A DNA stretch of 64,000 nucleotides from Candidatus Brocadiia bacterium (GCA_041658285.1 JBBAAP010000001.1:260916-324915); one strand, 5' to 3'. Numbered from the stretch's first letter, positions 5,772-54,884 are shown. Numbers and translations: made by a program. The notes: generated from the sequence alone by a model not told the origin.

Positions 5772-6641
5772 TTATTTAGATAAAGTCCGCATCGCACGGG
5801 TCAGGTATTTTAAGAGGTCCGAGGCTATCAACGAGTGCTGGCCGAGGTCTTTGGCGGCCAGGTCTCCAGCCTTGCCATGCAGGTAGACAGCCAGCTGGGT
5901 AGCCTGGAAATCGGGCAGCTTCTGGCCAAGTAAACCGGCGATGATTCCGGTCAGGACATCGCCCGAACCGGCCGTAGCCATGCCCGGGTTGCCGGTATCA
6001 TTAATGTAAATACGCTTGCCGTCGGTGACTATGGTCTGATAGCCCTTGAGGGCTATGATAATGCGGTGTTTCTTAGCGGTTTCTACGGATACTTTTTGGC
6101 GGTTGTGCTGGACATAAGCGCCGGACTTATTAATCAGACGGGCCATTTCGCCGGCGTGCGGAGTTAGAATAATGGAATTAGCTATGGACTTGACCATCCT
6201 GGGAATATATTCAGCATCGGATATGGCGTTAAGACCGTCGGCGTCAATCACTACTGGTTTCCGGCAGGCCAGCAGGAAATCCTGAACCAGCTTGATGGTC
6301 TCGTTGTTGCGCGATATGCCCGGACCGACCACGACAACATCAATATCCCTAGCCAGAGAAACCAGGCGCTCTTTGGCTTTATAAGCAAAGGTGCCGTCGT
6401 AGGTCTCGGGCATCGGAAAGGTAATAACCTCGGTCAGTTTGGAAGCCAGGATAGGCTGCTGTGATTTAGGCACGGCCAGGTAGACCAGCCCGGCGCCGGA
6501 CCTCAAAGCACCCATAGAACAGAGGTAGGCCGCGCCGGACATACCGGTAGAACCGGCCACCATCAGTATCTTGCCGTTATCGCCCTTATGGCAGTCGGGC
6601 CGACGGCAAGGCATTTCGGGTAATGTATCTATCAGTTTCAT
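5772..6641 (-). CDS. nnrD: ADP-dependent NAD(P)H-hydrate dehydratase (YjeF C-terminal domain family)
   Basis: 289 aa. It carries HKGDNGKILMVAGS and the GSGDVLTG ribokinase-like motifs typical of YjeF-C / Nnr2. Confidence 0.85.
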   Translation of the reverse strand: MKLIDTLPEMPCRRPDCHKGDNGKILMVAGSTGMSGAAYLCSMGALRSGAGLVYLAVPKSQQPILASKLTEVITFPMPETYDGTFAYKAKERLVSLARDIDVVVVGPGISRNNETIKLVQDFLLACRKPVVIDADGLNAISDAEYIPRMVKSIANSIILTPHAGEMARLINKSGAYVQHNRQKVSVETAKKHRIIIALKGYQTIVTDGKRIYINDTGNPGMATAGSGDVLTGIIAGLLGQKLPDFQATQLAVYLHGKAGDLAAKDLGQHSLIASDLLKYLTRAMRTLSK

Positions 6642-6733
6642 ATTTTTTATTATACGTATTCTATATTTTGCATTTGGAAAATCAACTTTTTATTGACATT
6701 AATGCAAATATGCTATAAATGGGAACTTAAATT

Positions 6734-7165
6734 ATGGCAATGAAACTTCCAGGTAAAAGCCGTATATCAGCGGCCGCTCATAAGGCGCCAGAGGTAAAAA
6801 AGGCACCGGAGCCCGCGGCACCGCCCTCACCGTCCGCCTATCCGATGAAGACGGCCATAACCTTCGGCGTGCTCCATGTAATATTCGCTTTATCTGTCAC
6901 CGTCTGGAACTTTAACCTGAGCATTTTGCAACCCAACAGCGCCGATTGGATTATCAGATTACTGGAAATCCCGGGCGCCCTGTTTGTCAGCCTGATCGGA
7001 CAGGCCGATAATGTCAACTCATTCCTGCCCTATCTTATTGTTTACCTCATCAATACACTTATCTATGCTGCCATAGGCTATGGCGTCGGCATCCTTATAA
7101 TAAAATATAAGATAGACGAGGAATTAAAAACCATCCTCCATCTGGAGGAAGAAGCATATCAATAG
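6734..7165 (+). CDS. Hypothetical small membrane protein
   Basis: 143 aa with a Pro/Ala-rich N-terminus followed by 3 predicted TM helices. A possible TTGACA...TATAAAT promoter lies at 6693-6719. Confidence 0.5.
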   Translation: MAMKLPGKSRISAAAHKAPEVKKAPEPAAPPSPSAYPMKTAITFGVLHVIFALSVTVWNFNLSILQPNSADWIIRLLEIPGALFVSLIGQADNVNSFLPYLIVYLINTLIYAAIGYGVGILIIKYKIDEELKTILHLEEEAYQ

Positions 7166-7213
7166 TTCCGGATTGCATCCGCTGATAATATTTTTACTGA
7201 AAGGAGAATTTAT

Positions 7214-8269
7214 ATGTTCAAAAGATTAACCATAGCAACCGTAATAGCCGTACTCATCGGAGGATTTTATATGAATATCCACAGCGAAGAAAACGATAAC
7301 GCTAATATCAAAACAACAACACCGGTTCTTAAAGTATCCATAGAAATTCCCAAGAGTATGGTCAATCTGGGCGAAAATGTTGACATAAACTTTACTTTGG
7401 CCAACCTTTCCCAGCAAAAGACCGATGTTATCAAGCCGATATTGGATGTTGACTCGGTTTCGTTCGAACTATCCCATACGCCGGACCAGGGTAAACCGTA
7501 CAGCTTCACTTATACCATTATAAATCCTTCTGTTTACGAGCATTCCCGCGATAAGATGGAAAAAATAACTCTGGATAAGTTCGGGCTGCCCGGCAGCACA
7601 AATAAGATAACATTTTCCATTCCGGCCATAAAACAGGGGCGATGGACAGCCAAAGCTTTTTATAAAGGCGGGCCTAACACTGTCAACTCAGAGGTAGCCT
7701 CATTCGCATCCCTGCCGCCGGCCCAGGATGCGGCCAAGGCCGGTATGAAATCAAACAACAACGAAGTGACCGCTACTATCGAAACCAACAAAGGCAATAT
7801 GACCCTTCGTTTCTTCCCTGAGGACGCGCCGAACCATGTAATAAATTTCATCCAACTGGCCAGGAAGGGCTTCTATAATAACCTGATTTTCCACCGGGTC
7901 ATCAAGGATTTTATGATTCAGGGCGGCTGTCCGGAAAAAACCGGCCGGGGCGGTCCGGGATATAATGTAAAAGGCGAATTTAACCAGCGTCAGCATCTCA
8001 AGGGAACGCTTTCAATGGCCAGAAGTAAGAGCAACGACAGCGGCGGCAGTCAGTTTTTCATCTGTCTGGAAGCAAGACCTGACTTGGATAGAAATTACAC
8101 CGTATTCGGCGAGATACTGGAAGGCATCAACGTGCTGGAAACCATCGGAAATGCCCCGACCAGCGGATCACAGGGTAAAACGCCAGACCGGCCGCTGGAA
8201 GATATGGTAATCAAGAATGTTACCGTCCAGACCAGGCCGGTGGTTGAACCAGCGCCATCCGGCAAATAA
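7214..8269 (+). CDS. Peptidyl-prolyl cis-trans isomerase, cyclophilin type, with an N-terminal beta-rich extension
   Basis: The C-terminal 170 aa is a cyclophilin fold (FHRVIKDFMIQGGCP, GTLSMARSKSNDSGGSQFFI). A strong SD (AAAGGAG) precedes the ATG, and the N-terminus is a signal/TM segment. Confidence 0.9.
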   Translation: MFKRLTIATVIAVLIGGFYMNIHSEENDNANIKTTTPVLKVSIEIPKSMVNLGENVDINFTLANLSQQKTDVIKPILDVDSVSFELSHTPDQGKPYSFTYTIINPSVYEHSRDKMEKITLDKFGLPGSTNKITFSIPAIKQGRWTAKAFYKGGPNTVNSEVASFASLPPAQDAAKAGMKSNNNEVTATIETNKGNMTLRFFPEDAPNHVINFIQLARKGFYNNLIFHRVIKDFMIQGGCPEKTGRGGPGYNVKGEFNQRQHLKGTLSMARSKSNDSGGSQFFICLEARPDLDRNYTVFGEILEGINVLETIGNAPTSGSQGKTPDRPLEDMVIKNVTVQTRPVVEPAPSGK

Positions 8270-8368
8270 ACAGGTCCCTCTCTTTGCGCCTGCTTGTATA
8301 ATAAACTCTGCGGCAGTCTGGGAATTTTTCTTGACAGAATGCCTGATTTTGATTACTATAACGTGTCT

Positions 8369-9184
8369 ATGAAAGTCACTTTTCTTGGTTCCGGAACAGG
8401 GATACCTTATACTCGGCGTGCTTCGCCCGGGATACTGGTTGAGTCAGGTAACATCCGTTTGCTTATGGACTCCGGCCCCGGCGCCTTAAGGCAGCTGGCT
8501 CAGCTGGGCATCAATTCACATCAGATTAGCCACCTGCTTTATACCCATTTTCACCCGGACCATACCAGCGACCTGATTACGTTCCTGTTCACAGCCCGTT
8601 ACCAGATAACATCGCCCTTAAAAAACGGTCTGACCCGAGCAACACAAAAGTTCATTAATAGCCATAAAACCGGATTTCGAACCGCCCCGCTGACAATCAT
8701 CGCGCCTAAGGGATTGAATAAATTCTACCGGAATATCCTTAACCTCTATTATAAGTGGATCGTACCCACTACCTATAAATTGACACTTAAAGAAGTACTG
8801 GAAAGTTCCTTCAAAGTCGGCAATCTCAATATCAAATCATCTGAGATGAAGCACGAAAAGTACAGCGTAGGTTATCGGCTGACAACTCCTGGCGGAAAAA
8901 GCCTGGTTTATTCAGGCGATACTGAATACTGCCCGAACATCGTACGGCTGGCCAAGAACTCCGATGTTCTGGTCTTAGAGGCCTCGGCTCCGGATGAAGT
9001 AGCTATGCCCTACCATCTCAGACCGCTGACCTCGGCCCGGATAGCATCCGAAGTAAACCCGAGAAAGCTTATTCTGACCCATCTTTATCCGGTCTGCGAC
9101 GAACATAACATTACCAATCAGGTGCATAGTCATTGGCCCGGCAAAGTGGAAACAGCATTGGATTTCAAGAGTTTTAAACTGTAA
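8369..9184 (+). CDS. MBL-fold metallo-hydrolase (RNase Z-like)
   Basis: It has the HxHxDH motif (HFHPDHTSDL). The tracked ORF begins at TTG 8294; the in-frame ATG at 8369 (MKVTFLGSGTG) matches the canonical MBL N-terminus. Confidence 0.75.
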   Translation: MKVTFLGSGTGIPYTRRASPGILVESGNIRLLMDSGPGALRQLAQLGINSHQISHLLYTHFHPDHTSDLITFLFTARYQITSPLKNGLTRATQKFINSHKTGFRTAPLTIIAPKGLNKFYRNILNLYYKWIVPTTYKLTLKEVLESSFKVGNLNIKSSEMKHEKYSVGYRLTTPGGKSLVYSGDTEYCPNIVRLAKNSDVLVLEASAPDEVAMPYHLRPLTSARIASEVNPRKLILTHLYPVCDEHNITNQVHSHWPGKVETALDFKSFKL

Positions 9185-9211
9185 TATTTTATATTAATAG
9201 GAGGAATCAAC

Positions 9212-10957
9212 ATGTCAAAGAATGTAGTTTTCGATGAACAGATACGGCTTTTGCTTAAAAAAGGCGTAGACAAAACGGTCCGGGCGGTTAAATACACCTA
9301 TGGCCCGGCCGGACGGGCGGTGATGATTGACAAGGGCTGGGGCAGCCCGTCCGTTACCCGGGACGGGGCCAGCGTAGCAGACGAAATCGATCTGATTGAC
9401 CCGCAAGAAAATCTGGGAGCCCAGATGGTCAAAGCGGCCGCCTCTAAAACAAATGACGATACCGGCGACGGCTCAACCACTACCGTTATCCTGGTCGGTG
9501 CGATATTCACCGAAGGGCTCAAACACGTCACCGCCGGCGGCAACGCCATGGCCATAGGCCGGGGGATCAAAAAGGCTGTCGCCAAACTGACCGAAGAAAT
9601 TAAAAAGATATCAGAACCGGTCAAGGTCGAACGCAGCAAAACCAACAAAATAATCAACCAGATAGCCACTGTGGCGGCCGGCAACGACCCGGTCATCGGG
9701 AAATTCATAGCTGACGCCATGGACAAGGTCTTGGCCGACGGCGTCATTACCATCGAAGAAGGCAAAGGCACCGAAACCGATGTCAAAATCGTCGAGGGTA
9801 TGCAATTCGACCGCGGTTTCGTGTCGCCCTACTTCATAACTAACCAGGAAAAGATGGAAGTTATCCTGAACAACCCATACATTCTTATCTACGAAGACAA
9901 AATCTCCAACCAGAATGATTTAATCCCGCTGATGGAGTCGCTCATCAAGGAAAAACGCCCGCTTCTTATTATCGCCGAGGACATTGAAGGCGATGCCCTG
10001 GCTACGCTGGTCGTCAATAAAGTTAAAGGCACGCTGGAATGCGCCGCGGTCAAAGCGCCCGGTTACGGCGACCGCCGGAAGGAAATGATTGAAGACATCG
10101 CTATAATGACCGGCGGCAAGGCCGTATTCAAAGACCTGGGCGTAAACATCAAGAAACTGCCTAAGGAATACCTGGGCACAGCCCGCAAGGTCATTATCGA
10201 TTCGGAAAATACCACCATCGTCGAAGGCGCCGGAACTTCCAAGGAAATTAAAGCACGTACCGAAAAAATAAGGTCAGAGATGGCCAAAAGCGATTCCGAT
10301 TACGACCGGGAAAAACTCCAGGAACGACTGGCCCGGTTCAGCGGCGGAATCGCACAGATAAACATAGGCGCGTCCACCGAAACCGAACTCAAGGGCAAGA
10401 AAGAGCGGGCTGAGTCGGCACTGTCAGCCGTTAAGGCGGCCCTGGAAGAAGGCGTAGTCACGGGCGGCGGAATTGCGCTGCTCCGTATCACCAGCGCGCT
10501 GGATAAACTTAAGTTCGAAGGCGACGAACAGATTGGCGTCGAGGTCATCAGAAAAGCCCTGGAACTGCCCTTCCGCCAACTCATTGAAAACAGCGGACGC
10601 GAACCGTCATCAATACGACGCAAACTCAACTTATCCACTAAACCAGACTGGGGATTTGATATCCAAGCCGGCGAAATCCGCAACATGACCGAAGCAGGCA
10701 TCCTGGACGCCACCAAGGTAGTTCGGACTGCATTACAAAACGCGGCCAGCGTAGCTGAACTGCTTTTAACCACCAACGCCGCAATCACCGATATCAAGGA
10801 AAAAAATGGGGGCGGACCGCAGATGCCTCCGGGCGGAATGCCCGGCATGGGCGGTATGCCTGGTATGGGTGGAATGCCCGGAATGGGTGGTATGCCCGAT
10901 ATGGGTGGTATGCCCGATATGGGTGGCATGGATATGCGCGGAATGGGTATGGATTAA
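9212..10957 (+). CDS. groEL: Chaperonin GroEL paralog 1 (Cpn60) with a C-terminal GGM repeat tail
   Basis: 581 aa, colinear with GroEL (GPAGRAVMIDKGWGSP, TGDGSTTTVIL, GGGIALLR). A strong SD (AGGAGGA) precedes it and no groES gene lies immediately upstream. The C-terminus carries GGMPGMGGMPGMGGM repeats. Confidence 0.93.
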   Translation: MSKNVVFDEQIRLLLKKGVDKTVRAVKYTYGPAGRAVMIDKGWGSPSVTRDGASVADEIDLIDPQENLGAQMVKAAASKTNDDTGDGSTTTVILVGAIFTEGLKHVTAGGNAMAIGRGIKKAVAKLTEEIKKISEPVKVERSKTNKIINQIATVAAGNDPVIGKFIADAMDKVLADGVITIEEGKGTETDVKIVEGMQFDRGFVSPYFITNQEKMEVILNNPYILIYEDKISNQNDLIPLMESLIKEKRPLLIIAEDIEGDALATLVVNKVKGTLECAAVKAPGYGDRRKEMIEDIAIMTGGKAVFKDLGVNIKKLPKEYLGTARKVIIDSENTTIVEGAGTSKEIKARTEKIRSEMAKSDSDYDREKLQERLARFSGGIAQINIGASTETELKGKKERAESALSAVKAALEEGVVTGGGIALLRITSALDKLKFEGDEQIGVEVIRKALELPFRQLIENSGREPSSIRRKLNLSTKPDWGFDIQAGEIRNMTEAGILDATKVVRTALQNAASVAELLLTTNAAITDIKEKNGGGPQMPPGGMPGMGGMPGMGGMPGMGGMPDMGGMPDMGGMDMRGMGMD

Positions 10958-11001
10958 AATTATTCTCCCCGCCATTAGCCGGGGGTCAAAGGAGATTAAA
11001 T

Positions 11002-11289
11002 ATGAATATCAGACCGTTAGAAGACAGAATCGTGATAAAACCACTTGAGGAAAAAACTACCACTGCCGGCGGAATCATCCTGCCGGATACAGTCAAGGAA
11101 AAACCCCAGAGGGGCGAGGTCGTAGCGGCCGGCTCCGGTAAAATTATGACCAGCGGTAAAAAAGCTCCTCTGATCCTAAAAAAAGGAGATACCGTCATAT
11201 TCGGCAAATACGCCGGAACAGAAATCAAGGTCGACGAGAAAACTTACATCATAATGAAGGAAGACGAAATCCTGGCCCGGATAGAATAA
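11002..11289 (+). CDS. groES: Co-chaperonin GroES
   Basis: 95 aa (MNIRPLEDRIVIKPLEE...AGGIILPDT...GEVVAAG). The SD is AAAGGAG. Confidence 0.95.
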   Translation: MNIRPLEDRIVIKPLEEKTTTAGGIILPDTVKEKPQRGEVVAAGSGKIMTSGKKAPLILKKGDTVIFGKYAGTEIKVDEKTYIIMKEDEILARIE

Positions 11290-11377
11290 TAATAAAAGTC
11301 TGCGGGTAACGAGTTCATCGGCTCGAAAATGAACTATCTTATGAACTCGTAAACCCATGAACCTGAAGGAGTAAACT

Positions 11378-13000
11378 ATGTCTAAGCAACTAATGTTCGA
11401 TTACGAAGCGCACCAAAAAATACTTAAAGGCGCCAAGTCCCTGGCCGATACACTCAGAATAACCCTTGGCCCGACCGGGCGGAACGTCCTGCTGGATAAG
11501 TCGTTCGGTAACCCGGAAATCATCAAGGACGGCAATGCCATATCTAAAGAGGTAGAACTACCCGATCCGTTCGAGAACATGGGAAGCAAAATGATCAGCG
11601 AGGCCGCTTCCAAAACTTCCGACGTCATAGGCGACGGCGCATCTGTCTCGGCCCTGCTGGCTTACGCCATATACGAATCCGGACTTAAATACCTGACTTC
11701 GGGCGCTAATCCGGTCGGGCTCAAAAACGGCATAGAAAAAGCCACGTCCACAATAGTAGACACGCTTAAAGAAATGTCCAGACCGGCCACCGAAAAATCA
11801 GATTACCAGAATATTGCTACCGTTTCGGCCAATCGGGATGAGAAAATCGGCAAGCTTATCGCCGAAGCGATGACTAAAGTCGGCAAAGAAGGCGTGATTA
11901 CGGTCGATGAAGGCAAAGGCCGGGAAACCACCCTGGAATTCACCGAAGGGCTATCGTTTGACAAGGGCTACATCTCGCCGTATTTCGTAACCAACCCGGA
12001 GAATCTGACCTGCGTCTTGAACGACTGCTATATCCTGCTCTACGAAAAAAAGATTACCAATCTGCAGGAAATGCTGCCGCTTCTGGAGCAGGTGGTCCAG
12101 ACCGGAAAATCAATATTAATAGTGGCCGAGGAAATCGAAGGCGAGGCGCTTACGGCCCTGGTCATCAACAAACTCCAGGGCAGCTTGAAATGCTGCGCCG
12201 TCAAGACGCCGGCTTTCGGAGACCGCAAGAAAGCCATTATGGAAGATATCGCCATAGTCACCGGCGGACAGTTCTTCTCCGAGGAACTGGGAGCTAAGCT
12301 AGAAGAAATATCGGTCAATAACCTAGGCAAGGCTAAAAGTATCAAAATCGATAAAGACAATACCTACATCGTCGAAGGCGCCGGCGCTAAGAAGAAAATC
12401 GAGGCACGCGTGGCTCAGATACGCAACCTGATTAAAACCACCACCTCGGATTATGACCGGGAAAAATATGAGGAACGGCTGGCTAAATTAGTCGGCGGCG
12501 TAGCGGTCATTAAGGTCGGCGCGCTGATGGAAACGATGATAAAAGAGAAGAAATCGGTCATTGAAAACGCGGTAAACTCGGCTCGAGCGGCCCGGGATGA
12601 AGGTTATCTGCCGGGCGGCGGACTGGCTTACCTAAAATGCCTGCCGGCGCTGGAAGACCTGAAAGAGAAAACATCAAACCCGGACGAACGTATGGGCATA
12701 ACTATCGTAGCCCAGGCAATGGAAATACCGCTCCGCCAGATTGCCGACAACAGCGGCCGCGACGGCGCCATGATCGTGGAAGACCTCAAAGAGAAATCAA
12801 AGGATGACGACCCCATCGGGTTTGACGCCTTCTCGGGCGAATATACCCATATGATCAAGGCCGGTATCGTCGACCCGACCAAGCTCCTGAGAAGCGCCAT
12901 CCAGAATGCTTCGAGCATCGCCGGACTGATGCTTTCTTCACGGACATTAATCACCGATTTCAAGGAGAAGGAAAAAACTATCGAAGGCAGTATCCAGTAA
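11378..13000 (+). CDS. groEL: Chaperonin GroEL paralog 2 (no GGM tail; degenerate nucleotide-binding loop)
   Basis: 540 aa, colinear with GroEL (TLGPTGRNVLLDKSFGNPEIIKDGN). The canonical GDGTTTATVL loop reads GDGASVSALL. Confidence 0.9.
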   Translation: MSKQLMFDYEAHQKILKGAKSLADTLRITLGPTGRNVLLDKSFGNPEIIKDGNAISKEVELPDPFENMGSKMISEAASKTSDVIGDGASVSALLAYAIYESGLKYLTSGANPVGLKNGIEKATSTIVDTLKEMSRPATEKSDYQNIATVSANRDEKIGKLIAEAMTKVGKEGVITVDEGKGRETTLEFTEGLSFDKGYISPYFVTNPENLTCVLNDCYILLYEKKITNLQEMLPLLEQVVQTGKSILIVAEEIEGEALTALVINKLQGSLKCCAVKTPAFGDRKKAIMEDIAIVTGGQFFSEELGAKLEEISVNNLGKAKSIKIDKDNTYIVEGAGAKKKIEARVAQIRNLIKTTTSDYDREKYEERLAKLVGGVAVIKVGALMETMIKEKKSVIENAVNSARAARDEGYLPGGGLAYLKCLPALEDLKEKTSNPDERMGITIVAQAMEIPLRQIADNSGRDGAMIVEDLKEKSKDDDPIGFDAFSGEYTHMIKAGIVDPTKLLRSAIQNASSIAGLMLSSRTLITDFKEKEKTIEGSIQ

Positions 13001-13047
13001 ATATCATCCCGACAAGCGGGACTAACTGATTCCGAACGGAGGATTAT

Positions 13048-14097
13048 ATGAACGATACCACAAATACCGGGATGATCCAGCCCGAAATACGCAAAGGAAA
13101 AACAGCTAGCTTCTGGATATCAATAATCCTGGGCATACTGCTGGTATTCAGCGCACTGGGTAATTTTATCCTGCTTATCGCATTAGCAGCTAAAGTCGGA
13201 AGCGTCGGGCAGTATAACAAAAGCGATTTCAATGAAACCTTCGTTCACGGCGACAACTCGGCCGACCACAAGATAGTCTGCATCACCGTGTCCGGCCCAA
13301 TTATAAGAGATTCAGCTCCATCGATGTTCAACCAGAGATTAGACCCGGTCAGCACGGTCATGGAATCCCTGGAAATGGCCAAGAATGACCATGATGTCAA
13401 AGCGATTATACTTGAAGTCAACAGCCCGGGCGGCGGCATAACCGAAAGCGACCAGATTTATAACGAACTGTTGCGGTTCAAAAAAGCACGTCCCGAAGTT
13501 AAAATCATCACTTCCATGGACAGCGTAGCCGCATCGGGCGGTTATTATATCTCTATGGCTACAGACCGGGTGGTCGCCCGGCCGACAACCATCACCGGCA
13601 GTATCGGCGTGATTATGGGGCTGATTAATATGGAAGAGCTCTTCAAGAAAATCGGCGTCAAGGAAGTCATCTTCAAATCCGGCGCCAAGAAGGATATGTT
13701 CTCACCCACTCGACAGATAACCGATGAGGAGAAACAGATTGCCCAAGCCATCATCAAGGAGATGTACGACCGATTCGTATCCGTGGTAGTCGAGGGACGC
13801 AAGAACCTGGACAAGGAAAAAATACTCCAGCTGGCCGACGGCCGCATCTATACGGGACAACAGGCTTTCGAACACGGGCTGGTCGATGAACTGGGTGACT
13901 TTAATGACGCATTTGAAGCGACCAAGAAGCTGGCCAACCTGACTAATGCCCGGGTAATCCGCTATAAAAAACGCTGGTCGTTCGGCGAGCTGTTCCTTTC
14001 AGAAATGCAGAATTTAAAACCGTCTATCAGCCTGCTGCCTGAAAATTCCGGACTTTCAATGGATACGCCCAGGTTCATGTATCTGTGGACATATTAA
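13048..14097 (+). CDS. sppA: Signal peptide peptidase SppA (36K type)
   Basis: It has an N-terminal TM segment and a ClpP/crotonase-fold S49 peptidase domain with IILEVNSPGGG and SMDSVAASGGYY motifs. Confidence 0.9.
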   Translation: MNDTTNTGMIQPEIRKGKTASFWISIILGILLVFSALGNFILLIALAAKVGSVGQYNKSDFNETFVHGDNSADHKIVCITVSGPIIRDSAPSMFNQRLDPVSTVMESLEMAKNDHDVKAIILEVNSPGGGITESDQIYNELLRFKKARPEVKIITSMDSVAASGGYYISMATDRVVARPTTITGSIGVIMGLINMEELFKKIGVKEVIFKSGAKKDMFSPTRQITDEEKQIAQAIIKEMYDRFVSVVVEGRKNLDKEKILQLADGRIYTGQQAFEHGLVDELGDFNDAFEATKKLANLTNARVIRYKKRWSFGELFLSEMQNLKPSISLLPENSGLSMDTPRFMYLWTY

Positions 14098-14131
14098 TAC
14101 CACTAACTCCCTTCGGTCGAAGTGGCCTAAC

Positions 14132-14248
14132 CCCATACACTTCGTGTATGGGATAAAAACCAGTAACTCGCTTTGCTAGCTCTAACCCAGTTATTTCTTT
14201 GAAATAACTGGATAAGTGCCAGTACGTCGCTTCGCTCCTACTGGCACT
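14132..14248. terminator. Three consecutive stem-loops between convergent sppA and the membrane-paralog gene
   Basis: The first is CCCATACAC-TTC-GTGTATGGG at 14132-14152 (9-bp stem). The second is CAGTTATTTC-TTT-GAAATAACTG at 14188-14210 (10-bp stem). The third is AGTGCCAGTA-14 nt-TACTGGCACT at 14215-14248 (10-bp stem, overlapping the TAG stop of the minus-strand gene). Confidence 0.6.
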
Positions 14249-15167
14249 AATTATGGCCACCGCTCAGGAAGAAGTAGATTGTCAGGATAGAGCCCAGAAT
14301 GCTCAACACCGCAAAGGCCTTGCTAGATATCTTGTTCTTGCCGCTGCCTACACCTTTGATAAGTATCAGTATAACCACCCAATAGACGAATATCATCAGG
14401 CTCTTATTATCCACGTCATTAGGGTCCATCACCTCGGGTATGCCGGTCCAGGGCCGACCGTAGGCAACATAGGCTACGTAACATCCTATCGGGAAGCTGG
14501 TAATGAAGAAAAACAGGTTAGCCCAAAACGAGGAAAGAACCGCCTTCATTATCGGGAATTGGCTGGTAGCCAGATGCATCAACCCGTAATATAATATATG
14601 CAGCAGGAACAATACGGTCATGACCATCATGGCGATATGAAGCGCGGTCACCCACAAAACACTCTCTCTTCGGAAAGTAATATTTTCTATCTTGGCGTCC
14701 GGGGCATCGGCGCCTTTGGGATAAATGTGGCTGGCGCCGGCATCATCGGTCATGATAATGTAAAAATAATACTGCTCATCCATTTTCATCCCGACTAAGG
14801 TTGCCGTATAAAATCCCGTATTACCGGCCGGGTACATGGGCGCCAGGTTAAACGGTTTTTTGGGCGCCGGCGTCTTGAAAACCATAGTCGGCCGGGCTTC
14901 TTCAACGTTAAGGCTGTAATAGGCCAGCTTCACATCCTTGGGCTTATTATCTGAAGTAACCAAAAGGTTTATGATGGCATCTTTACCCTCATAAAACTCT
15001 CCCCGGTTGCTGTATTCCATCTTGAATGAACCGACATCCTTGGTCTTGTGGCGGCTGGTCACGGCCATAAGCATTCCAAACGAATAGACAAAACCGATAA
15101 GCAAACCTATCCCTAACGTTACATAAAGCGGCCAGCGCGGGAATTTCTTTGTGGTTTCTTCTGACAT
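14247..15167 (-). CDS. Hypothetical membrane protein (tandem paralog A): N-terminal TM, ~150-aa periplasmic domain, 4 C-terminal TM helices
   Basis: 306 aa. It is clearly paralogous to the next gene, with shared blocks HI..M...LF.LH..YY and G.W.EYE.YG..WTG.P. Confidence 0.6.
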   Translation of the reverse strand: MSEETTKKFPRWPLYVTLGIGLLIGFVYSFGMLMAVTSRHKTKDVGSFKMEYSNRGEFYEGKDAIINLLVTSDNKPKDVKLAYYSLNVEEARPTMVFKTPAPKKPFNLAPMYPAGNTGFYTATLVGMKMDEQYYFYIIMTDDAGASHIYPKGADAPDAKIENITFRRESVLWVTALHIAMMVMTVLFLLHILYYGLMHLATSQFPIMKAVLSSFWANLFFFITSFPIGCYVAYVAYGRPWTGIPEVMDPNDVDNKSLMIFVYWVVILILIKGVGSGKNKISSKAFAVLSILGSILTIYFFLSGGHN

Positions 15168-15198: not shown

Positions 15199-16101
15199 TT
15201 AAATATCACCATGCCCTATTGCAAACCTGACAACCATAGTCAGAATTCCGCCCAGCACGGTCAGCCAGGCAAAAGTCTTGTAGCTGACCAGGTTCTTCTG
15301 GGGGTTATTGGAAAAGACCGAACCCTTTACCAGGATTATTACAACAAACCAATAAGCAAAATTAAACAGCGTCTTGCTGTCGGTCATATCCCAACCCAGC
15401 GGGAAACCGGTCCAGTATGTCCCGTACTTTTCGTACTCGATCCAGATGCCCAGTGGGAATGCCGAAATACCATAACATAAAAGACCCCAAGCGATACCGG
15501 AAACCGCCTTATTGAAGCTCCAGTCAACCTTGTTCCACAGATAATTGAAGGCATAATAGAACCCGTGTAACAAGAAGAACAACGCCACAATCATCAGCAG
15601 GATATGCACGGTCAAACCAAAGGTATTTGGATCCTGTTTAAACGACACGTGATAAGGCACCTTGGTGGTCAGGAAGCTCTCGGGCATAACAACCACGTTA
15701 TTCTGGCTGTCCGTAACCTCGATAAAGAAATATGTTTTGTGGTTCTTTTCCATAGTCGGCAGCTGGTGCGCATAAAACCTGCCCTTTTCGGTCGGGCTCA
15801 TTAATTCAATCTTGAAATCAGATTTCTGGATATTGGGATACTTGGCCTTGAATTCCTCGTCCTTAAGCCAGTAAACCTTGGCGCCATCCAGCGGTATCTG
15901 CCCCTTCTGGGTCGAGGCGTTGATGAAGAAGCGGTACTGGTAACCCGCGTCCTCTTCCTTGTAGTGGTTATAAACCACTTTCAGGTCGCCCTTGACGGCC
16001 ATATCCGGCTTGCGTTTGGCCAACATCTCATAGCAGGCAAACGTCAACACCAGGCTCAAGAGCGTGACAAAGATATACATCGGCATCTTGGAATAACTCA
16101 T
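15199..16101 (-). CDS. Hypothetical membrane protein (tandem paralog B)
   Basis: 300 aa with the same architecture and conserved blocks as 14247..15167. Confidence 0.6.
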   Translation of the reverse strand: MSYSKMPMYIFVTLLSLVLTFACYEMLAKRKPDMAVKGDLKVVYNHYKEEDAGYQYRFFINASTQKGQIPLDGAKVYWLKDEEFKAKYPNIQKSDFKIELMSPTEKGRFYAHQLPTMEKNHKTYFFIEVTDSQNNVVVMPESFLTTKVPYHVSFKQDPNTFGLTVHILLMIVALFFLLHGFYYAFNYLWNKVDWSFNKAVSGIAWGLLCYGISAFPLGIWIEYEKYGTYWTGFPLGWDMTDSKTLFNFAYWFVVIILVKGSVFSNNPQKNLVSYKTFAWLTVLGGILTMVVRFAIGHGDI

Positions 16102-23906: not shown

Positions 23907-24190
23907 ATTAATTAGTTTACTTAGGATTATGTATAAATCAAGACATTTAAGAAAGTATACTCTGGCAGTTTGATGGCGTCTTTGGCGCCAGAATTACTGC
24001 CAAGTATCCTGGGCTAATAACTCACTGCATTCTAACAGCCCACGGATAATTAAAGTTGAGTTCTGGCCAAATAAATTGACACTTCCGGATAAAATGACTT
24101 AATATGATTTAAGGAAAATAAAATCAGGCAAAAGGAAATAGACGCGAACGGGTGTGTTTCCAACCCAAATAATAATGATGGAGGCTAAAT

Positions 24191-26014
24191 ATGGGTTTAT
24201 TTGCGTCAATAATTCATTTACGAGATGTTGAGCAAAACCAGGTAATCAAAGAAATTGATAAGCGTATGAGTGAGTCAGGGTATCGCAGGAGTGAATTATT
24301 GTCTATTCCCCAAAGTGGTCCTTCCACACTCCCCGACCACAAAAAATGGATGAACGATGGCAAGTACTACTTAGTTTCGCCTAAACAAGGTAATTGGGTA
24401 ACCATTATTGAGTCGCCACTTGTAACTACCGAACCATATGGAAGCGGCCTTGCCAACATGTTAAGCAAAACATTATCCACATACTCATTAGCGTTAAGTG
24501 TCCACGATAGTGATATCTTCTTCTACAATTTAGATTATAAGGGAGTCCCCAAAGACGGGTATAACAGTTATCCTCAGTACTTTGAGGATGCGCGACTCAG
24601 TAATGCTAAGGTAAAAGAACAAAGGCATACGCCGGAAGAGTTTCAACCAATTTTACCTCAAGGCGTAACAATGGAGCAATTAAAAAACATTTTAAATGCC
24701 GGCTGGTGGAATGAATTTGATACGGGTTCTTTAGGTAATGATGGCGCAGTCACCGGAAATGATGAGTATTTTGGTTCAGAGGAAAATAGAATGACCGATT
24801 TTGGCACCTTACTACAATTAGGTGGCAAAGTGACTAAATATCCATATGCGTTTTGGGATGGGTCGGAAGATATTCTATGGAAGGAATTCAAGGCTATTAG
24901 ATACTTAAAACAGAAAAATAGCTGTATGATATTTTTCGATAATGAAATCCAGGAGAACTCAACTTATGCACAAAGGTTTTTTTCCTTATGCATTGATTTC
25001 AGCACATTTTTATTATTAGCATTAATTTGTACACTAGCGCCTGAGCCATACGATACAATTTCCGCATTTACCTTGATTGTATGGTATATTGTATGGCATA
25101 AAATATTCCGAAAAACAGGACAAACCATTGGAACAAAGTTAATGAGAATAAGAGTTGTTCCGATGTATGGGTCTAAATTATCTTTTATAGCCCCGTTTTA
25201 CCGAATATTTTTAAGCGCTCCTCAATTTGCTCTTTTTGCGGCATACGAAAACATAGACCGGCATGAAGACCAATCTATCCTTGATAAGGTATCGCATACA
25301 TATACAATTAAACTAAAAAATAAAATCGTTAGCAAAGGGACCGTTTCTACCGGCGGAGATGCTGCAACCCAGGGACAAAAAATCTTTACAGGCAGAAATA
25401 AATACCGCCAAGCGAGCATTCAACGACTGAGCAAGTTTGGTATCAAAATTCCCGGACACCTACCTTTAATCGAGAATAATTCGGAGTTGAATCCTAGAAG
25501 TAAGGATGAGGTAATAGGCAAAATATGCGCCTTTGGATATGTCATTGGCATGGGGTACACTGATAAAACAGATGATTTGATTGCCAGTATAGATAAATAC
25601 AAACTTTGGCCATATGTCAGTCAGTTCCAGGCCAAGTGCCTTAAAAATCCGGGTAGTATAACAAAACAGGACAAGACAAATTTTATGTGGCTGGCCGAGT
25701 GCGTTTATGCATTTGCTTGGTGTCTGAAGATTGTTGAACTGGATTGCACTAAAACCTGCCCTGATAATCTGGCTGATTTAACCGTTCCAGGCCATACGCC
25801 GGATGAATTCATGAAGAACAAGGAAATGAGGAGCCTTGAAGAAATACAACAAGAAGCGGATTTTCATTACTGCTTACATTGGTATGAGCAACAATGCCGT
25901 ATAGATGGCAAAAAGGGGTTAGTTGGAGAAGGGGTAATCTGGGAAAGAAGAAGAGCATTGGATTGGACGATTGGCGTTTCTAACGACTGGGATGATATGC
26001 CAAGCGATACCTAA
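24191..26014 (+). CDS. Hypothetical protein with a central RDD-family membrane domain (low-GC islet)
   Basis: 607 aa with GGAGG as SD. The central TM pair carries the RDD-like motif (GQTIGTKLMRIRVV). The C-terminal ~250 aa contain FMWLAECVYAFAWCLKIVE ... ERRRALDWTIGVSNDWDDMPSDT, which resembles DUF4272-type C-terminal domains. GC content is markedly lower than in the flanking DNA. Confidence 0.6.
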   Translation: MGLFASIIHLRDVEQNQVIKEIDKRMSESGYRRSELLSIPQSGPSTLPDHKKWMNDGKYYLVSPKQGNWVTIIESPLVTTEPYGSGLANMLSKTLSTYSLALSVHDSDIFFYNLDYKGVPKDGYNSYPQYFEDARLSNAKVKEQRHTPEEFQPILPQGVTMEQLKNILNAGWWNEFDTGSLGNDGAVTGNDEYFGSEENRMTDFGTLLQLGGKVTKYPYAFWDGSEDILWKEFKAIRYLKQKNSCMIFFDNEIQENSTYAQRFFSLCIDFSTFLLLALICTLAPEPYDTISAFTLIVWYIVWHKIFRKTGQTIGTKLMRIRVVPMYGSKLSFIAPFYRIFLSAPQFALFAAYENIDRHEDQSILDKVSHTYTIKLKNKIVSKGTVSTGGDAATQGQKIFTGRNKYRQASIQRLSKFGIKIPGHLPLIENNSELNPRSKDEVIGKICAFGYVIGMGYTDKTDDLIASIDKYKLWPYVSQFQAKCLKNPGSITKQDKTNFMWLAECVYAFAWCLKIVELDCTKTCPDNLADLTVPGHTPDEFMKNKEMRSLEEIQQEADFHYCLHWYEQQCRIDGKKGLVGEGVIWERRRALDWTIGVSNDWDDMPSDT

Positions 26015-49254: not shown

Positions 49255-50136
49255 GTGGCAAAGATTTATATGAGATATGAAGGCAACATCATCCGCCCGC
49301 CCAGCGAGGCAGACAGTTATCTGCTCCAGATAACCTACGGCTGTTCGCACAACAAATGCGCCTTCTGCGGCACCTACGACCAGAAATTCCGCGTCCGCCC
49401 GCTCGAAGACGTCCTGACCGACATCGCACTGGCCGGCAAATGCGTGCCCCACACCCGGCGTGTGTTCCTGTGCGACGGCGACGCTATGATTCTGCCCAAC
49501 AGCCAGCTCCTGAAAATACTCAAAGCGCTGGCTATGGTTTTCCCCGAGCTCCAACGGGTTGGCATCTACGCCAACGCCCGCGATATAATCAAGAAGACCG
49601 ACTCCGAGCTGGCCGAGCTGGCTGAACACAAGCTGACCATCGCCTATATCGGGCTGGAAAGCGGCAACGACGAAGTGCTCCGCCGTGTCAACAAAGGCGC
49701 CACCGCATCGGATATGATAACAGCCGTTAAGAAAGCACAGGCCAACGGCATAAAGATGTCCGTCATCGGGCTGATTGGGCTGGGCGGTAAAGAGCTCTCC
49801 CAACCGCACGCGCTGGACACGGCCAAAGCCGTCAACCTGATGAACCCGCGTTATTTCAGCCTGCTTACATTAATGATAGTAAACGGCACGCCGCTGGCCG
49901 ATGATTATAAGTCAGGCAAGTTCGAACTGCCCGAAGCCGAGGATATGGTCAAAGAAATCCGGCTGGTAGTCGCCAACATAGACAGCAACCAGACCATCTT
50001 CCGAGCCAACCACGCATCCAATTACGCGCCGCTGGCCGGCACCTTCAACAAAGACAAAGCCCGACTACTGGCCGAGATAGACAGCTACCTTAAGGGCGAC
50101 AACAACTTCCGCCCCGAGTTCATGCGCGGATTGTAG
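49255..50136 (+). CDS. Radical SAM protein
   Basis: It has a GCSHNKCAFCGTY cluster motif (C-x4-C-x2-C variant). Confidence 0.7.
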   Translation: MAKIYMRYEGNIIRPPSEADSYLLQITYGCSHNKCAFCGTYDQKFRVRPLEDVLTDIALAGKCVPHTRRVFLCDGDAMILPNSQLLKILKALAMVFPELQRVGIYANARDIIKKTDSELAELAEHKLTIAYIGLESGNDEVLRRVNKGATASDMITAVKKAQANGIKMSVIGLIGLGGKELSQPHALDTAKAVNLMNPRYFSLLTLMIVNGTPLADDYKSGKFELPEAEDMVKEIRLVVANIDSNQTIFRANHASNYAPLAGTFNKDKARLLAEIDSYLKGDNNFRPEFMRGL

Positions 50137-51729: not shown

Positions 51730-52515
51730 ATGAATGAAGCCAGCAGGTTCCTTCGTTATGTATTGCCTAGTTTAATAATGTTACTAGAGTTTTTTATATA
51801 CCTATGTATTTCTAACTTTGGGGATGCGAAAAAATTACTAGAATATATACGTGGTGACATAGGAATAGCTATTATTTCTTTCTTGGGCGTCGGCGCTATG
51901 GGATATTTTTTATCAATGTTTTATTATTCCCTTTGCCCTCTAGTAGATTATCGCCCCCTTATTAAGGCTTGTACGGAATGGAATTTGTTAAGATTACAAG
52001 ATAGAAGTACACACAAACCTATAGATGTTGATAAGATTTCGCGTGATGGCGCGTGGCGAATAGCAGTTACGCTCTGGCAGGAAAATAAGATGAAAGACGA
52101 GGGGATAAAAGGAGCAGATGATAGGCAAGAAAGGTTTAGCGATATACTTAATAGTCACGGTGTAGCTTTAATTGGCGCAATTATAGGAATCCTTGGATGG
52201 TTTGCTTATATCACGTATACTGGGTTTATTAGGTCTCCAGTTTTTTGGGACAAGTGGCCTTTTATTATTTCGGTACCTATGCTAATAATACTTTTGCACA
52301 TATCTAATTTTAAGAATGCTCGTGAAACTGCTCTAACAATAGGGGAAACTGTATTATTTAATGCATTATCGAATAACTTTAAAATACCTTCAGAATTATA
52401 TGTCGAAAATAAAATACCAGAAGAGGAAAGAAGAAAAATAAATGCTAAGAAAATCTTTAGCATTAATTTTGGCAAGTATAACAAAGTAACATTTGAACGG
52501 TTTTATAATAATTAA
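51730..52515 (+). CDS. Hypothetical 4-TM membrane protein (low-GC islet); possible membrane effector
   Basis: It has two TM hairpins (residues ~13-70 and ~157-205) separated by a charged soluble loop. The tracked start is 51721; I prefer the ATG at 51730 because of the upstream AAAGG. Confidence 0.55.
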   Translation: MNEASRFLRYVLPSLIMLLEFFIYLCISNFGDAKKLLEYIRGDIGIAIISFLGVGAMGYFLSMFYYSLCPLVDYRPLIKACTEWNLLRLQDRSTHKPIDVDKISRDGAWRIAVTLWQENKMKDEGIKGADDRQERFSDILNSHGVALIGAIIGILGWFAYITYTGFIRSPVFWDKWPFIISVPMLIILLHISNFKNARETALTIGETVLFNALSNNFKIPSELYVENKIPEEERRKINAKKIFSINFGKYNKVTFERFYNN

Positions 52516-52529
52516 TCAAGGGTTATCAG

Positions 52530-53546
52530 ATGACTATAAATTGTTTATTCTGTAATCAACCACTTACCCAAGATGCTCAAATTCTCACGACATGGATTTA
52601 TTTAGATAGCTGTAAAGAATGTGGGCTTTATTATAAAGACCAACGAGCCGATGTTACCACTAAAATCAATGCCGATGATAAAGTTCGTATTGCATCGTAC
52701 CTGCAAACAAAGAAGCTGAATAATTCACAAATAAGACCAGTTATTACTGACTTTAAAAACAAATCAGGAACAATTGAGGAATTAGAAGATAATGGAATAA
52801 ATCCTAATAAAATAACGCTAATTACAATTGAAGAAATGATAGATCAGTTCCCTAAAAGAATTGATGAGAAACTAAATAAGGCATTACAGAACTTAGGAAA
52901 ACTATCTCATTACTTAGGTGAACCAATTACTGTGGGTTTAAACTACCAACCAATTTTGTATGCGTTAAACTCAGGGGAATTTGAGGCAATATTATTCGCT
53001 TTGCGTGATGATGGCTATATAAAATGTACGTGGGATGGTATTGCTGGAACTAACCTCATTGTAATAACCCCTAAAGGTTATGAACGTATTTATGAATTAG
53101 GCAAGGTTAACCCGACCTCTCATCAGGCGTTTGTGGCGATGTGGTTTCCTGATCCTGTGAAAAATGAGACGGAGCATAACTTTTTGGATAATGTCTATAA
53201 AGAAGGGTTCGCAAAAGCAATTGATAATGCTGGCTATAAGCCTCAATTAATAAAGAATAAGGAATTCCTCGGCGAGATACACGATGAAATTATTGCAGAG
53301 ATAAAAAGGAGCAGGTTTTTAGTGGCCGATTTTACAGGCCAAAGAGGCGGGGTTTATTATGAGGCCGGATTTGCCCATGGATTAAATATCCCAGTCATAT
53401 ATACCTGTCACTGTGATTATATGAAGGACTGTCACTTCGACACCAATCACTATAATCATATCGTCTGGAAAGATGAGGCAGATTTATATACCCAATTATT
53501 GAATAGGATAAGGGCAACCATTGGACAGGGACCAAAAACAAATTAA
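52530..53546 (+). CDS. Zinc-ribbon / winged-helix / nucleoside 2-deoxyribosyltransferase-like (NDT/SLOG-type Rossmannoid) protein
   Basis: It has an N-terminal CxxC-x17-CxxC ribbon (CLFCNQ...CKECG). The middle is wHTH-like (AILFALRDDGYIKC...LIVITPKGYERIYEL). The C-terminus has FVAMWF (NDT beta1, cf. YFGAGWF) and RFLVADFTGQRGGVYYEAGFAHGLNIPVIY (NDT active-site region, cf. GLGMELGYALSQGKYV). Confidence 0.6.
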   Translation: MTINCLFCNQPLTQDAQILTTWIYLDSCKECGLYYKDQRADVTTKINADDKVRIASYLQTKKLNNSQIRPVITDFKNKSGTIEELEDNGINPNKITLITIEEMIDQFPKRIDEKLNKALQNLGKLSHYLGEPITVGLNYQPILYALNSGEFEAILFALRDDGYIKCTWDGIAGTNLIVITPKGYERIYELGKVNPTSHQAFVAMWFPDPVKNETEHNFLDNVYKEGFAKAIDNAGYKPQLIKNKEFLGEIHDEIIAEIKRSRFLVADFTGQRGGVYYEAGFAHGLNIPVIYTCHCDYMKDCHFDTNHYNHIVWKDEADLYTQLLNRIRATIGQGPKTN

Positions 53547-53699
53547 GCATTTTCCATCTTAATTCTTCCACCCTTCCTCCGTATTTTTTACCCATTCCTT
53601 CGTGCTTGCCCCCCGGAAAACCGCCTGAATCGCCATTTAATTGCCTTTCTGGCACATAGGGGGTGGCATCCCCCCTACCCCACACCATCCCTACCATAC

Positions 53700-54065
53700 C
53701 CTCAAGCCCATCCATATCTACCCAGGGCTTGGGGGTGCTTATACCTCCAACCCACCCATATCTACCTAGGGCTGGACCGTCATCCACCCTGGGATTGACC
53801 GTAATCCACCCAGGGCTTGAGGGTCATTATACCTCCAGCCCACCTACATCTTACCTCCAACCCATCCACATCTACCCAGGGCTTGACCGTCATCCACCCT
53901 GGGCTTGACCGTAATCCACCCAGGGCTTGGGGGGCATTATACCTCCATACCACCCACATCTTACCTCCAACCCATCCACATCTACCCAGGGCTGGACCGA
54001 CATCCACCTAGGGCTTGACCGTAATCCACCCAGGGCTTGAGGGTAATTATACCTGGTATGGAGGG
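53700..54065. repeat. Minisatellite: ~110-bp unit, ~3.3 tandem copies with nested 22-bp sub-repeats
   Basis: TCTACC(C/T)AGGGCT recurs at 53761, 53871 and 53981 (period 110), and ATCCACCCAGGGCTTGACCGT-like subunits recur within each unit. The ORFs called here (53395..54090, both strands) are repeat artefacts. Confidence 0.8.
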
Positions 54066-54203
54066 TAAGGCACCTTCGGAGTACTCGCAAATATTTTGAC
54101 TTATTTTATGTTTTAACCTATATTAAAACACGAAGCAGACGAATAATCTTTAATGCCACGAATAAGATTCGTGGGATTCGTTCTATTAGTGAGATTCGTG
54201 TTT

Positions 54204-54884
54204 ATGGATAACAGACCAGATGAGCAATTGACCGCGGCATATGTGTCCGGTGAACAGCCGGCATTCGACCACCTGGTCCACCGCTGGCAACCGAGGCTGT
54301 TCGGGTTCGCCTGCCGTAAGCTTTCCTGCATCGAACTCTTCGTGCCCGATACCAAACGAGGCGAAAGTAAAATCAACTCCGACGCCGACGAGGTGTCTGA
54401 GTCAACCATCGTATCCACCTGGAAAAACATCCGGCGCTTTAACGACACCCGGAAATTCTCGTCCTGGATTTATAAAATCTGCAAGGACGAGTGTTATATG
54501 TTCACCCGGTCCGAAGCGCGCCGGAACAAACATTGCGTGCCCCTGCCTGAGGATATCGACAAACTCAGATACGGCAAGGTGCGTGAATACGCCGAGGCCA
54601 AAATCACGATGGACTGCATCCTGGCTATCCTGAACCACCGACAGCACCGCTTGTTCGACCTGATTGTCGAGGACGGACGGCATTACGAGGCCATCCTGCA
54701 GGAGGACGAACTGTTCCGGGCAAATAACGAGCCGGAGCTGAGGGACGAATTCGCCGTGCTGATGGAAATGCTCTGGCTCAAACGGCAGAAGGAGATTGAC
54801 AACCTGCATAAGCACGACACCGAGTTCAGGGATATCAGCCTGCGGTACCACGCCGACGGCCCGCATATAAAGAAGGATAATTAG
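54204..54884 (+). CDS. RNA polymerase sigma factor, ECF-like
   Basis: Region 2 is present (AFDHLVHRWQPRLFGFA ... STWKNIRRF ... FSSWIYKICKDE). The tracked start is 54153; I prefer the ATG at 54204 (MDNRPDEQL). Confidence 0.65.
   Translation: MDNRPDEQLTAAYVSGEQPAFDHLVHRWQPRLFGFACRKLSCIELFVPDTKRGESKINSDADEVSESTIVSTWKNIRRFNDTRKFSSWIYKICKDECYMFTRSEARRNKHCVPLPEDIDKLRYGKVREYAEAKITMDCILAILNHRQHRLFDLIVEDGRHYEAILQEDELFRANNEPELRDEFAVLMEMLWLKRQKEIDNLHKHDTEFRDISLRYHADGPHIKKDN

Follow-up and report, generated by a model that had tools for sequence, protein, structure and literature searches.

We analysed a 64,000-nucleotide stretch of DNA (the window) from a groundwater-type planctomycete, a 'Candidatus Brocadiia' metagenome-assembled genome (MAG; Planctomycetota; GCA_041658285.1 JBBAAP010000001.1:260916-324915), and in particular its chaperonin operon at positions 9212-13000, in which groEL1, groES and groEL2 follow one another on the same strand as three open reading frames (ORFs), all of them with a strong Shine-Dalgarno sequence in front. 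Both GroEL paralogs lack the catalytic aspartate that corresponds to Asp398 of Escherichia coli GroEL – Ser stands in its place in GroEL1 and Asn in GroEL2 – and the same pair of replacements is shared by six genomes of one Brocadiia-affiliated subclade. The operon itself is the known, standard chaperone operon of planctomycetes; what is new is the clade-wide and apparently coupled replacement of the catalytic Asp in both of its GroELs. We consider it slightly better than an even bet (probability about 0.55) that both proteins are functional chaperonins, able to bind ATP and GroES but slow to hydrolyse ATP, and that the two paralogs are functionally coupled. The genes and residues on which the argument turns are listed here, with coordinates counted from the first nucleotide of the window.

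9212..10957, + strand: groEL1, encoding an EL1-type planctomycete chaperonin (Cpn60) of 581 aa with a long Gly-Met-Pro tail
9464..9484, + strand: GroEL1 phosphate-binding loop GDGSTTT (E. coli G86-A92), with the conservative change of T89 to Ser
10415..10417, + strand: GroEL1 Ser402 at the E. coli Asp398 position, codon TCG (MAFFT and phmmer)
10808..10954, + strand: Gly/Met/Pro-rich C-terminal tail of GroEL1, residues 533-581 (~49), disordered in the predicted model
11002..11289, + strand: groES, encoding a Cpn10 of 95 aa whose mobile loop (GGIILP) is canonical; matches Pfam Cpn10 and NCBIfam GroES
11378..13000, + strand: groEL2, encoding an EL2-type planctomycete chaperonin (Cpn60) of 540 aa without a GGM tail
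11630..11650, + strand: degenerate GroEL2 phosphate-binding loop GDGASVS (E. coli GDGTTTA), with T89A, T90S and T91V
12566..12568, + strand: GroEL2 Asn397 at the E. coli Asp398 position, codon AAC (MAFFT and phmmer)

Both proteins match the curated GroEL equivalog TIGR02348 over their full length (687 bits for GroEL1 and 724 bits for GroEL2, with a cutoff of 582), and their Pfam Cpn60_TCP1 E-values are 9e-73 and 5e-71, respectively. GroEL1 is 49% identical to E. coli GroEL, and the window GroES and GroEL2 are identical to the Brocadiia MAG proteins MFA5793668.1 and MFA5793669.1, which are encoded on a 467-kb contig. The AlphaFold2 (AF2) model of GroEL1 (predicted local distance difference test score, pLDDT, 77) has the predicted three-domain fold of a GroEL subunit, with template-modelling (TM) scores of 0.81-0.83 to the GroES-bound GroEL subunits 4v4o, 8wuw, 3wvl and 1aon. 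The fold search was made with GroEL1 only; the GroEL2 model (pLDDT 76) has its secondary-structure elements in the same order as the GroEL1 model.

Residues were assigned to E. coli positions in a MAFFT alignment that comprised both window proteins, E. coli GroEL and 240 homologues from the database, and independently in phmmer (HMMER) alignments of GroEL1 and GroEL2 to solved GroEL structures. Asp398 is the catalytic residue on helix M of the GroEL intermediate domain, where it sets the hydrolysis timer. An earlier note on this DNA had placed Ser (AESALSAV) and Asn (IENAVNSA) at this position by hand; the MAFFT and phmmer alignments agree with that placement, and the hand alignment was not shifted, as the full alignment to E. 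coli GroEL gives the same residues. In the AF2 models the position-398 residue falls within a predicted long helix spanning residues 390-413 in GroEL1 and 385-408 in GroEL2.

The operon was recovered from 12 lineages in all, and these show two states at position 398, given as EL1 + EL2.

S+N (Ser and Asn): the window; JAZDFB01 (L002); ERZ928008 (L096); JAZDMB01 (L005); JACRIK01 (L086); JACQZI01 (L088)
D+D (Asp in both): Scalindua (L089); the RIF40 lineage (L090); Ga0400689 (L092); JACPTZ01 (L093); TULL18 (L094); JACRIP01 (L095)

A genome-collection scan yielded three loci, and the two follow-ups to a GroES search gave further D+D operons. No mixed genome (S+D or D+N) occurs among the 12 sampled lineages. 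JACPTZ01, the closest D+D sister to the S+N clade, already has the pocket changes T93V and T403V, yet retains Asp398 in both paralogs. The losses of D398 in the two paralogs thus appear coupled at the sequence level, and the distribution suggests that the Ser and Asn replacements lie on the same internode, as far as sampling resolves. The earlier note had proposed a phylogeny of Cpn60 paralogs, and in a neighbour-joining (NJ) tree each form falls in a single long-branched clade, the Ser-bearing proteins (the S clade) inside the planctomycete EL1-type group and the Asn-bearing proteins (the N clade) inside the EL2-type group. All homologues outside these two groups have Asp at 398 (92/120 and 109/120 per search).

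Within the clade the replacements are stable. Asn398 is invariant across a 27-sequence alignment (A1) of the nearest GroEL2 relatives, and the codons vary synonymously among the clade genomes, with TCG, TCC and TCA for Ser and AAC and AAT for Asn. All six clade genomes use a TCN codon for this Ser, which differs from GAY at two nucleotides and may have arisen by way of an Ala (GCN) intermediate. D398 is also replaced – by Asn, Glu or Gly – in unrelated divergent GroEL paralogs (~7 full-length cases among 150 cluster representatives), so the phenomenon recurs, although it is apparently undescribed: we found nothing in the literature on D398S, D398N or the natural loss of Asp398.

The long-GGM-tailed GroEL1s of the window, L002 and L086 are called on their contigs but lack a Pfam entry and do not appear in the protein collection that was searched, so that homologue searches under-sample GroEL1; the gap is an artefact of the database and not a biological one. 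We considered the gap as a sign that the window groEL1 is a pseudogene and rejected it, since the gene is called and the GroEL1s of L002 and L086 are equally affected. That the replacements themselves are artefacts, whether of a shifted alignment, of sequencing or assembly error or of decaying pseudogenes, has in our estimate almost no chance of being correct. We found nothing that speaks for it – only the database gap looked suspicious at first – and three independent alignments agree, matching residues are present in six independently assembled genomes, and the ORFs are intact with a ratio of nonsynonymous to synonymous substitution rates (dN/dS) of 0.06.

The individual dN/dS values, from comparison of the window with its 90% relative L002, are 0.064 for groEL1 and 0.060 for groEL2, and to judge by the sequences the position-398 changes are fixed across the clade and under purifying selection. 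Position 398 is not the only one to have changed. At 193 positions conservation among canonical GroELs reaches 93% or more; the S clade differs at 14 of these and the N clade at 23, seven of them being altered in both paralogs (hypergeometric P = 3e-4), and the changes cluster at the nucleotide pocket (50, 54-56, 85, 92, 93, 398, 402 and 403). The equatorial and intermediate domains, which hold the ATPase machinery, have diverged most, and no compensating acidic residue near the pocket is found among the conserved-position changes.

Against this background the binding determinants are largely kept. The nucleotide-site residues T30-P33, D52, D87, G88, G414-416 (GGG) and D495 are present in both proteins and in both clades, the hinge glycines and inter-ring contacts are also conserved, and the apical residues that bind GroES and substrate (Y199, S201, Y203, F204, L234, L237, L259, V263 and V264) are either conserved or conservatively replaced. 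The phosphate-binding loops read as the earlier note had them: GDG is kept in both paralogs, and the threonines T89-T91 are represented by STT in the near-canonical GDGSTTT loop of GroEL1 and by ASV in GroEL2, which has lost all three and whose loop (GDGASVS for GDGTTTA) the alignment confirms as degenerate. The ASV form is confined to the window and L002, the rest of the clade having T, then A or V, then T, I, L or M. The phosphate-binding loop of GroEL contacts the phosphates largely via backbone amides, so ATP binding is not to be judged from the loop sequence.

The contrast in C-terminal tails between the two paralogs, a GGM tail in GroEL1 and none in GroEL2, was likewise read correctly in that note. 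Part of the GroEL1 tail is encoded by an 18-nt tandem repeat at 10838-10930, and GroEL2 ends in ...KEKTIEGSIQ; tail-less second GroEL paralogs are common. The EL1-type tails differ among lineages, with GGM/P repeats in the window, L002, L005 and L086, acidic tails in JACQZI (L088) and JACPTZ (L093), and His-rich tails, reminiscent of mycobacterial GroEL1, in TULL18 (L094, HMGHGH) and JACRIP (L095, AAHHHDH).

The closest functional parallel is the E. coli GroEL mutant D398A, which loses the same carboxylate. Its ATP site is otherwise intact, it binds ATP and GroES normally, and with 3% of the wild-type ATPase activity it still encapsulates and folds proteins (PMC3326522). By analogy with this mutant, proteins that keep the binding determinants and have Ser or Asn at 398 should bind ATP and GroES and hydrolyse ATP slowly. 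The parallel is not exact, in that D398A is an engineered Ala, whereas the window has naturally fixed Ser and Asn, extra pocket substitutions and two co-expressed paralogs. The earlier note had suggested a possibly non-canonical mechanism, and this stands in part: both proteins lack the D398 carboxylate, the GroEL2 loop is degenerate and the changes are fixed; the altered ATPase step is what we infer, reasonably, from changes that are fixed and under purifying selection.

The mechanism we propose is as follows. The standard groEL1-groES-groEL2 operon would be expressed from a strong sigma-70-type promoter, apparently without HrcA/CIRCE control. In the one Brocadiia-affiliated subclade, Asp398 was replaced in both co-operonic paralogs, by Ser in EL1 and Asn in EL2, with an additional relaxation of the T89-T91 phosphate loop in EL2. 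GroEL1 and GroEL2 would both have stayed under selection as ring-forming chaperonins able to bind ATP and GroES. ATP would still be bound and substrate enclosed under a GroES cap, with the hydrolysis timer running 10 to 100 times more slowly, so that folding chambers would be long-lived and ATP consumption low. As the two losses always co-occur, the paralogs probably share one cycle, through a common GroES pool or in mixed rings, in which their hydrolysis rates would need to match. These GroELs are, on our analysis, probably natural slow-cycling protein-folding machines.

Several points weigh against this proposal. Hydrolysis could be faster or slower with Asn or Ser than with Ala, our literature search having returned no report on D398S or D398N, and the loss of the carboxylate might be offset by the other changes in the pocket. 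Mixed rings are a proposal from sequence, and the evidence for coupling is 12 sampled lineages and an NJ tree rather than a dated or likelihood phylogeny. There may also be a canonical third GroEL, as hinted by the loss of groES in L002, the loss of the tail in JACQZI and the situation in Planctopirus limnophila, all of which are described below.

The second of these points can be put more strongly, as a claim that the remodelled pocket (54, 55, 85, 92, 93, 402 and 403) lets D52 together with Ser or Asn position the water, so that the rate is normal and the substitution neutral. We think this improbable. It would account for the parallel changes at shared pocket positions in the two paralogs and for the strict retention of D52 and D87, and D398A does keep residual activity, so D398 enhances the rate and is not indispensable. 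However, no new acidic residue is found at the conserved pocket positions, and Asp398 is otherwise invariant in the ~200 canonical homologues sampled, which argues that it matters for the rate; nor would a neutral change be expected to become fixed as two specific residues while their codons turn over synonymously.

The question of a third GroEL bears on slow cycling more directly. A tblastn search of the 64-kb window finds only the two known copies, and a comparison of NCBI accession blocks gave no D-bearing match in the blocks of the S- and N-clade genomes; unnamed NCBI entries carry no accession. In L002 (JAZDFB010000089.1), alignment of 9916-10003 with window positions 10955-11380 shows that ~340 nt, comprising groES and the palindromic spacer that follows it, are cleanly absent, so that groEL1 is followed directly by groEL2. 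In a collection of 5.8 billion proteins, identity to the window GroES never exceeds 69%; taken with an operon that has no groES, this means that L002 must use another groES. In L088 (JACQZI) neither paralog has a GGM tail, and such a tail has been reported always to be retained in at least one GroEL paralog (PMC11978752). Planctopirus limnophila has three GroELs, all of them essential (PMC10632474).

These observations are the main grounds for supposing that the operon copies are auxiliary, that a third, canonical groES-groEL pair does the housekeeping, and that GroEL1 and GroEL2 are holdase-like or client-specific with little or no ATPase, as has been proposed for chlamydial GroEL2 and GroEL3. 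The replacement of D398 in the ~7 other divergent paralogs noted above fits the same idea. We regard it as a real but lesser possibility, and one that only partly competes with slow cycling, being compatible with slow hydrolysis. Against it, the genes are orthologous to the main anammox chaperone operon and have a near-consensus promoter upstream, the GroES-, substrate- and ATP-binding residues are all kept at a dN/dS of 0.06, no third copy is found in the 64-kb window, and both proteins pass the GroEL equivalog cutoff and fall far below the 600-bit cutoff of the models for the chlamydial variants (for NF038370 and NF038369, 166 and 253 bits with GroEL1 and 214 and 252 bits with GroEL2). The chlamydial proteins resemble the window pair in being extra paralogs in the Planctomycetes-Verrucomicrobia-Chlamydiae (PVC) superphylum with altered ATP-binding and hydrolysis regions (PMC1892554). 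They are, however, far more divergent; their GroES-binding regions are altered, they are not heat-induced, and they do not complement a temperature-sensitive GroEL mutant (PMC1892554). In the window, by contrast, both operon copies are affected, including the one with the GGM tail.

At the opposite extreme the clade would have no canonical GroEL at all, and its sole essential chaperonin would lack the Asp398 carboxylate in every subunit, working through a shared or co-assembled cycle that is either slow or centred on D52. We rate this as doubtful, though it deserves attention for what it would imply: a natural, selected 'slow' chaperonin of the D398A kind, possibly an adaptation to energy-limited subsurface life. 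D398A is a standard laboratory tool for trapping ATP states. More generally, the clade offers a natural experiment on how fast a chaperonin cycle needs to be, on the co-evolution of hydrolysis rates in paralogs served by one GroES and on catalytic re-tuning, and the D-bearing sister operons (Scalindua and JACPTZ) provide built-in controls for biochemical comparison. For annotation, the plain name 'chaperonin GroEL' carried by all these proteins hides the change at Asp398.

Multiple groELs with one groES and paralogs that differ in their C-terminal tails are also known from Myxococcus xanthus and mycobacteria (PMC5406781, PMC5904260), for which we found no literature report of Asp398 loss. The M. 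xanthus groEL2 has no adjoining groES (PMC5406781), in contrast to the window, where the groELs are co-operonic.

The gene arrangement is not, as the earlier note had it, atypical. The order groEL1-groES-groEL2 is found in all 12 lineages with the exception of L002, which lacks groES, and dnaJ-grpE usually comes next. The arrangement is standard for this planctomycete branch, including Scalindua, whose GroELs both have D398. The nearest well-defined counterpart is the anammox operon groEL1-groES-groEL2-dnaJ-grpE of 'Candidatus Scalindua' (GCA_052827725.1) and the RIFCSPLOWO2_12_FULL_40_19 lineage, which has the same gene order, an EL1 with a C-terminal extension, an EL2 of ~540 aa ending in ...GSV, a single groES between the two groELs, and no CIRCE. 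It differs from the window operon in that both of its paralogs have D398 and GDGTTT, which are absent from both window GroELs; its GroELs are 58-62% identical to E. coli GroEL, as against ~50% for the window pair; and its groES-groEL2 spacer is ~20 nt, as against 88 nt with a hairpin in the window. The window operon has in addition an S49 peptidase gene in place of dnaJ-grpE and a metallo-beta-lactamase (MBL)-fold gene between the promoter and groEL1. The features flanking the three chaperonin genes are these.

8326..8359, + strand: near-consensus sigma-70-type promoter, TTTTCTTGACA-N17-TACTAT (promoter scan: TTGACA/17/TACTAT at 8331-8359)
8369..9184, + strand: gene for an MBL-fold (metallo-beta-lactamase superfamily) hydrolase, between the promoter and groEL1; matches Pfam Lactamase_B_2 and Lactamase_B
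13048..14097, + strand: gene for an S49-family (SppA-like) peptidase, 47 nt 3' of groEL2; matches Pfam Peptidase_S49

The promoter at 8326-8359 probably drives a transcript MBL-groEL1-groES-groEL2(-sppA). An TTTTCTTGACA...TAnnAT block occupies the equivalent place in L002 and L096 and lies immediately 5' of groEL1 in L005, L086 and L088. The MBL gene precedes groEL1 in the window, L002 and L096 and not in L005, L086 and L088. The ORF listing gives the MBL gene as 8294-9184 and the database gene call starts at ~8339; both starts are probably too far upstream, and the true start is probably the ATG at 8369 (MKVTFLGSG...), the context of which, AACGTGTCTATGAAAGT, is also kept in L002. The promoter ends ~10 nt before this ATG, so that the MBL mRNA would be nearly leaderless. 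The S49 peptidase gene, found at the equivalent position in L002 and L096 and replaced there by dnaJ-grpE in more distant relatives, is probably the final gene of the groEL transcription unit.

As the earlier note had stated, no CIRCE element (controlling inverted repeat of chaperone expression) accompanies these genes. With CIRCE defined as TTAGCACTC-N9-GAGTGCTAA and up to three mismatches allowed, there are zero matches across the 64-kb window and none at any of the 12 planctomycete operon loci, and the same search matched 30 of 80 unrelated groESL loci used as a positive control. The control loci, 80 unrelated canonical groESL loci of 51-55% identity, came from a metagenome scan with the N-clade alignment that keyed on generic GroEL peptides (DPFENMG and QNAxSxAGLM). 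The absence is uninformative for this operon in particular, since no planctomycete operon has CIRCE and Planctomycetes reportedly have no HrcA (PMC4989314).

The 88-nt spacer between groES and groEL2 contains the palindrome that the earlier note had placed at about 11300-11345.

11304..11355, + strand: imperfect palindrome or hairpin, arms 11304-11318 and 11341-11355 (15 nt, 87% complementary), core CGAGTTCAT / ATGAACTCG

The palindrome is thus real, with slightly different limits. The corresponding 61-nt hairpin has a predicted folding energy of -18.2 kcal/mol (z = -3.7 relative to shuffles), and the hexamer ATGAAC occurs three times in direct orientation (11329, 11341 and 11357) and once inverted (11313), a count reached in none of 1000 shuffles. 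The conclusion drawn from it, that it points to non-canonical regulation, is not supported: the sequence is absent from L002, different in L096 and different again in every other genome, and without conservation among even the nearest relatives it does not qualify as a conserved operator. We favour a local intercistronic mRNA hairpin, most likely one that affects the processing or stability of the groEL2 cistron. An intrinsic terminator is not indicated, as the sequence after the hairpin (CATGAACCTGAAGGAG) has no T-run and a terminator scan of the + strand does not list it.

It could also be asked whether a novel repressor, taking the place of HrcA/CIRCE, uses the palindrome as its operator. 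The ATGAAC array, unmatched in 1000 shuffles, and the analogous arrays of other hexamers in L086 (GTCAAG) and L088 (ATCAGA) are what might be expected of one; the palindrome, however, sits inside the operon, 3' of two genes and away from the promoter, varies in sequence by genome, is absent from the 90% relative, is not significant in L005 or L096, and folds as a stable RNA hairpin. We therefore think an operator very unlikely. Two further candidates were rejected, a known RNA family or thermometer because Rfam gives zero matches at E <= 1 over 6400-14300, and a dispersed repeat resembling repetitive extragenic palindromic (REP) elements because the only other exact 9-mer copy in the 64 kb is at 50115.

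Spacers of this kind vary among the lineages. Those of the window (11290-11377), L086 (9890-10000) and L088 (12712-12822) each have a hexamer of their own (ATGAAC, GTCAAG and ATCAGA, respectively) in 4-5 copies and both orientations, a count reached in no more than 1 of 1000 shuffles, and share a layout with one 5' arm followed by several 3' copies of its complement. The spacer is 1-30 nt in the outgroups L089, L092 and L094, and in the D-bearing sisters L093 and L095 it measures 370 and 140 nt, respectively, and contains no significant hexamer array.

Other putative regulatory features lie upstream of groEL1. Two near-consensus sigma-70-type promoters, at 8326-8372 and 6690-6725, are shared between the window and L002. 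Where the MBL gene is missing, a leader of 84-211 nt with GC-rich hairpins separates the promoter from groEL1 (L086 7650-7762; L088 9761-10001), and these hairpins may act as RNA thermometers or regulate through the leader in some other way. The anammox groEL1 is preceded (L089 ~7780-7850; L090 ~2690-2760) by two conserved palindromes of the type TGCCATATTGGCA / ATGTCAAATTGACAT, which could be a regulator's operator in the D-bearing Scalindua and RIF40 lineages.

Just upstream, and on the strand of the operon, a gene at 7214-8269 encodes a cyclophilin-type peptidyl-prolyl isomerase (PPIase) that is extended at its N-terminus by ~185 residues, so that the neighbourhood – PPIase, MBL-fold hydrolase, GroEL1, GroES, GroEL2 and S49 peptidase – forms a protein-folding and quality-control cluster. 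On its 3' side are two adjacent ORFs for membrane proteins of ~300 aa (14247-15167 and 15199-16101, - strand), which have no Pfam match and resemble tandem paralogs; the pair is kept 3' of the operon in L096. Elsewhere in the window, where the GC content is otherwise ~0.50, two patches of low GC (0.39-0.40) at 24001-26000 and 52001-54000 may be acquired islands. The first carries a 607-aa RDD/DUF4272 protein, and the second has two ORFs without a Pfam match beside a gene resembling an extracytoplasmic function (ECF)-type sigma factor at 54153-54884.

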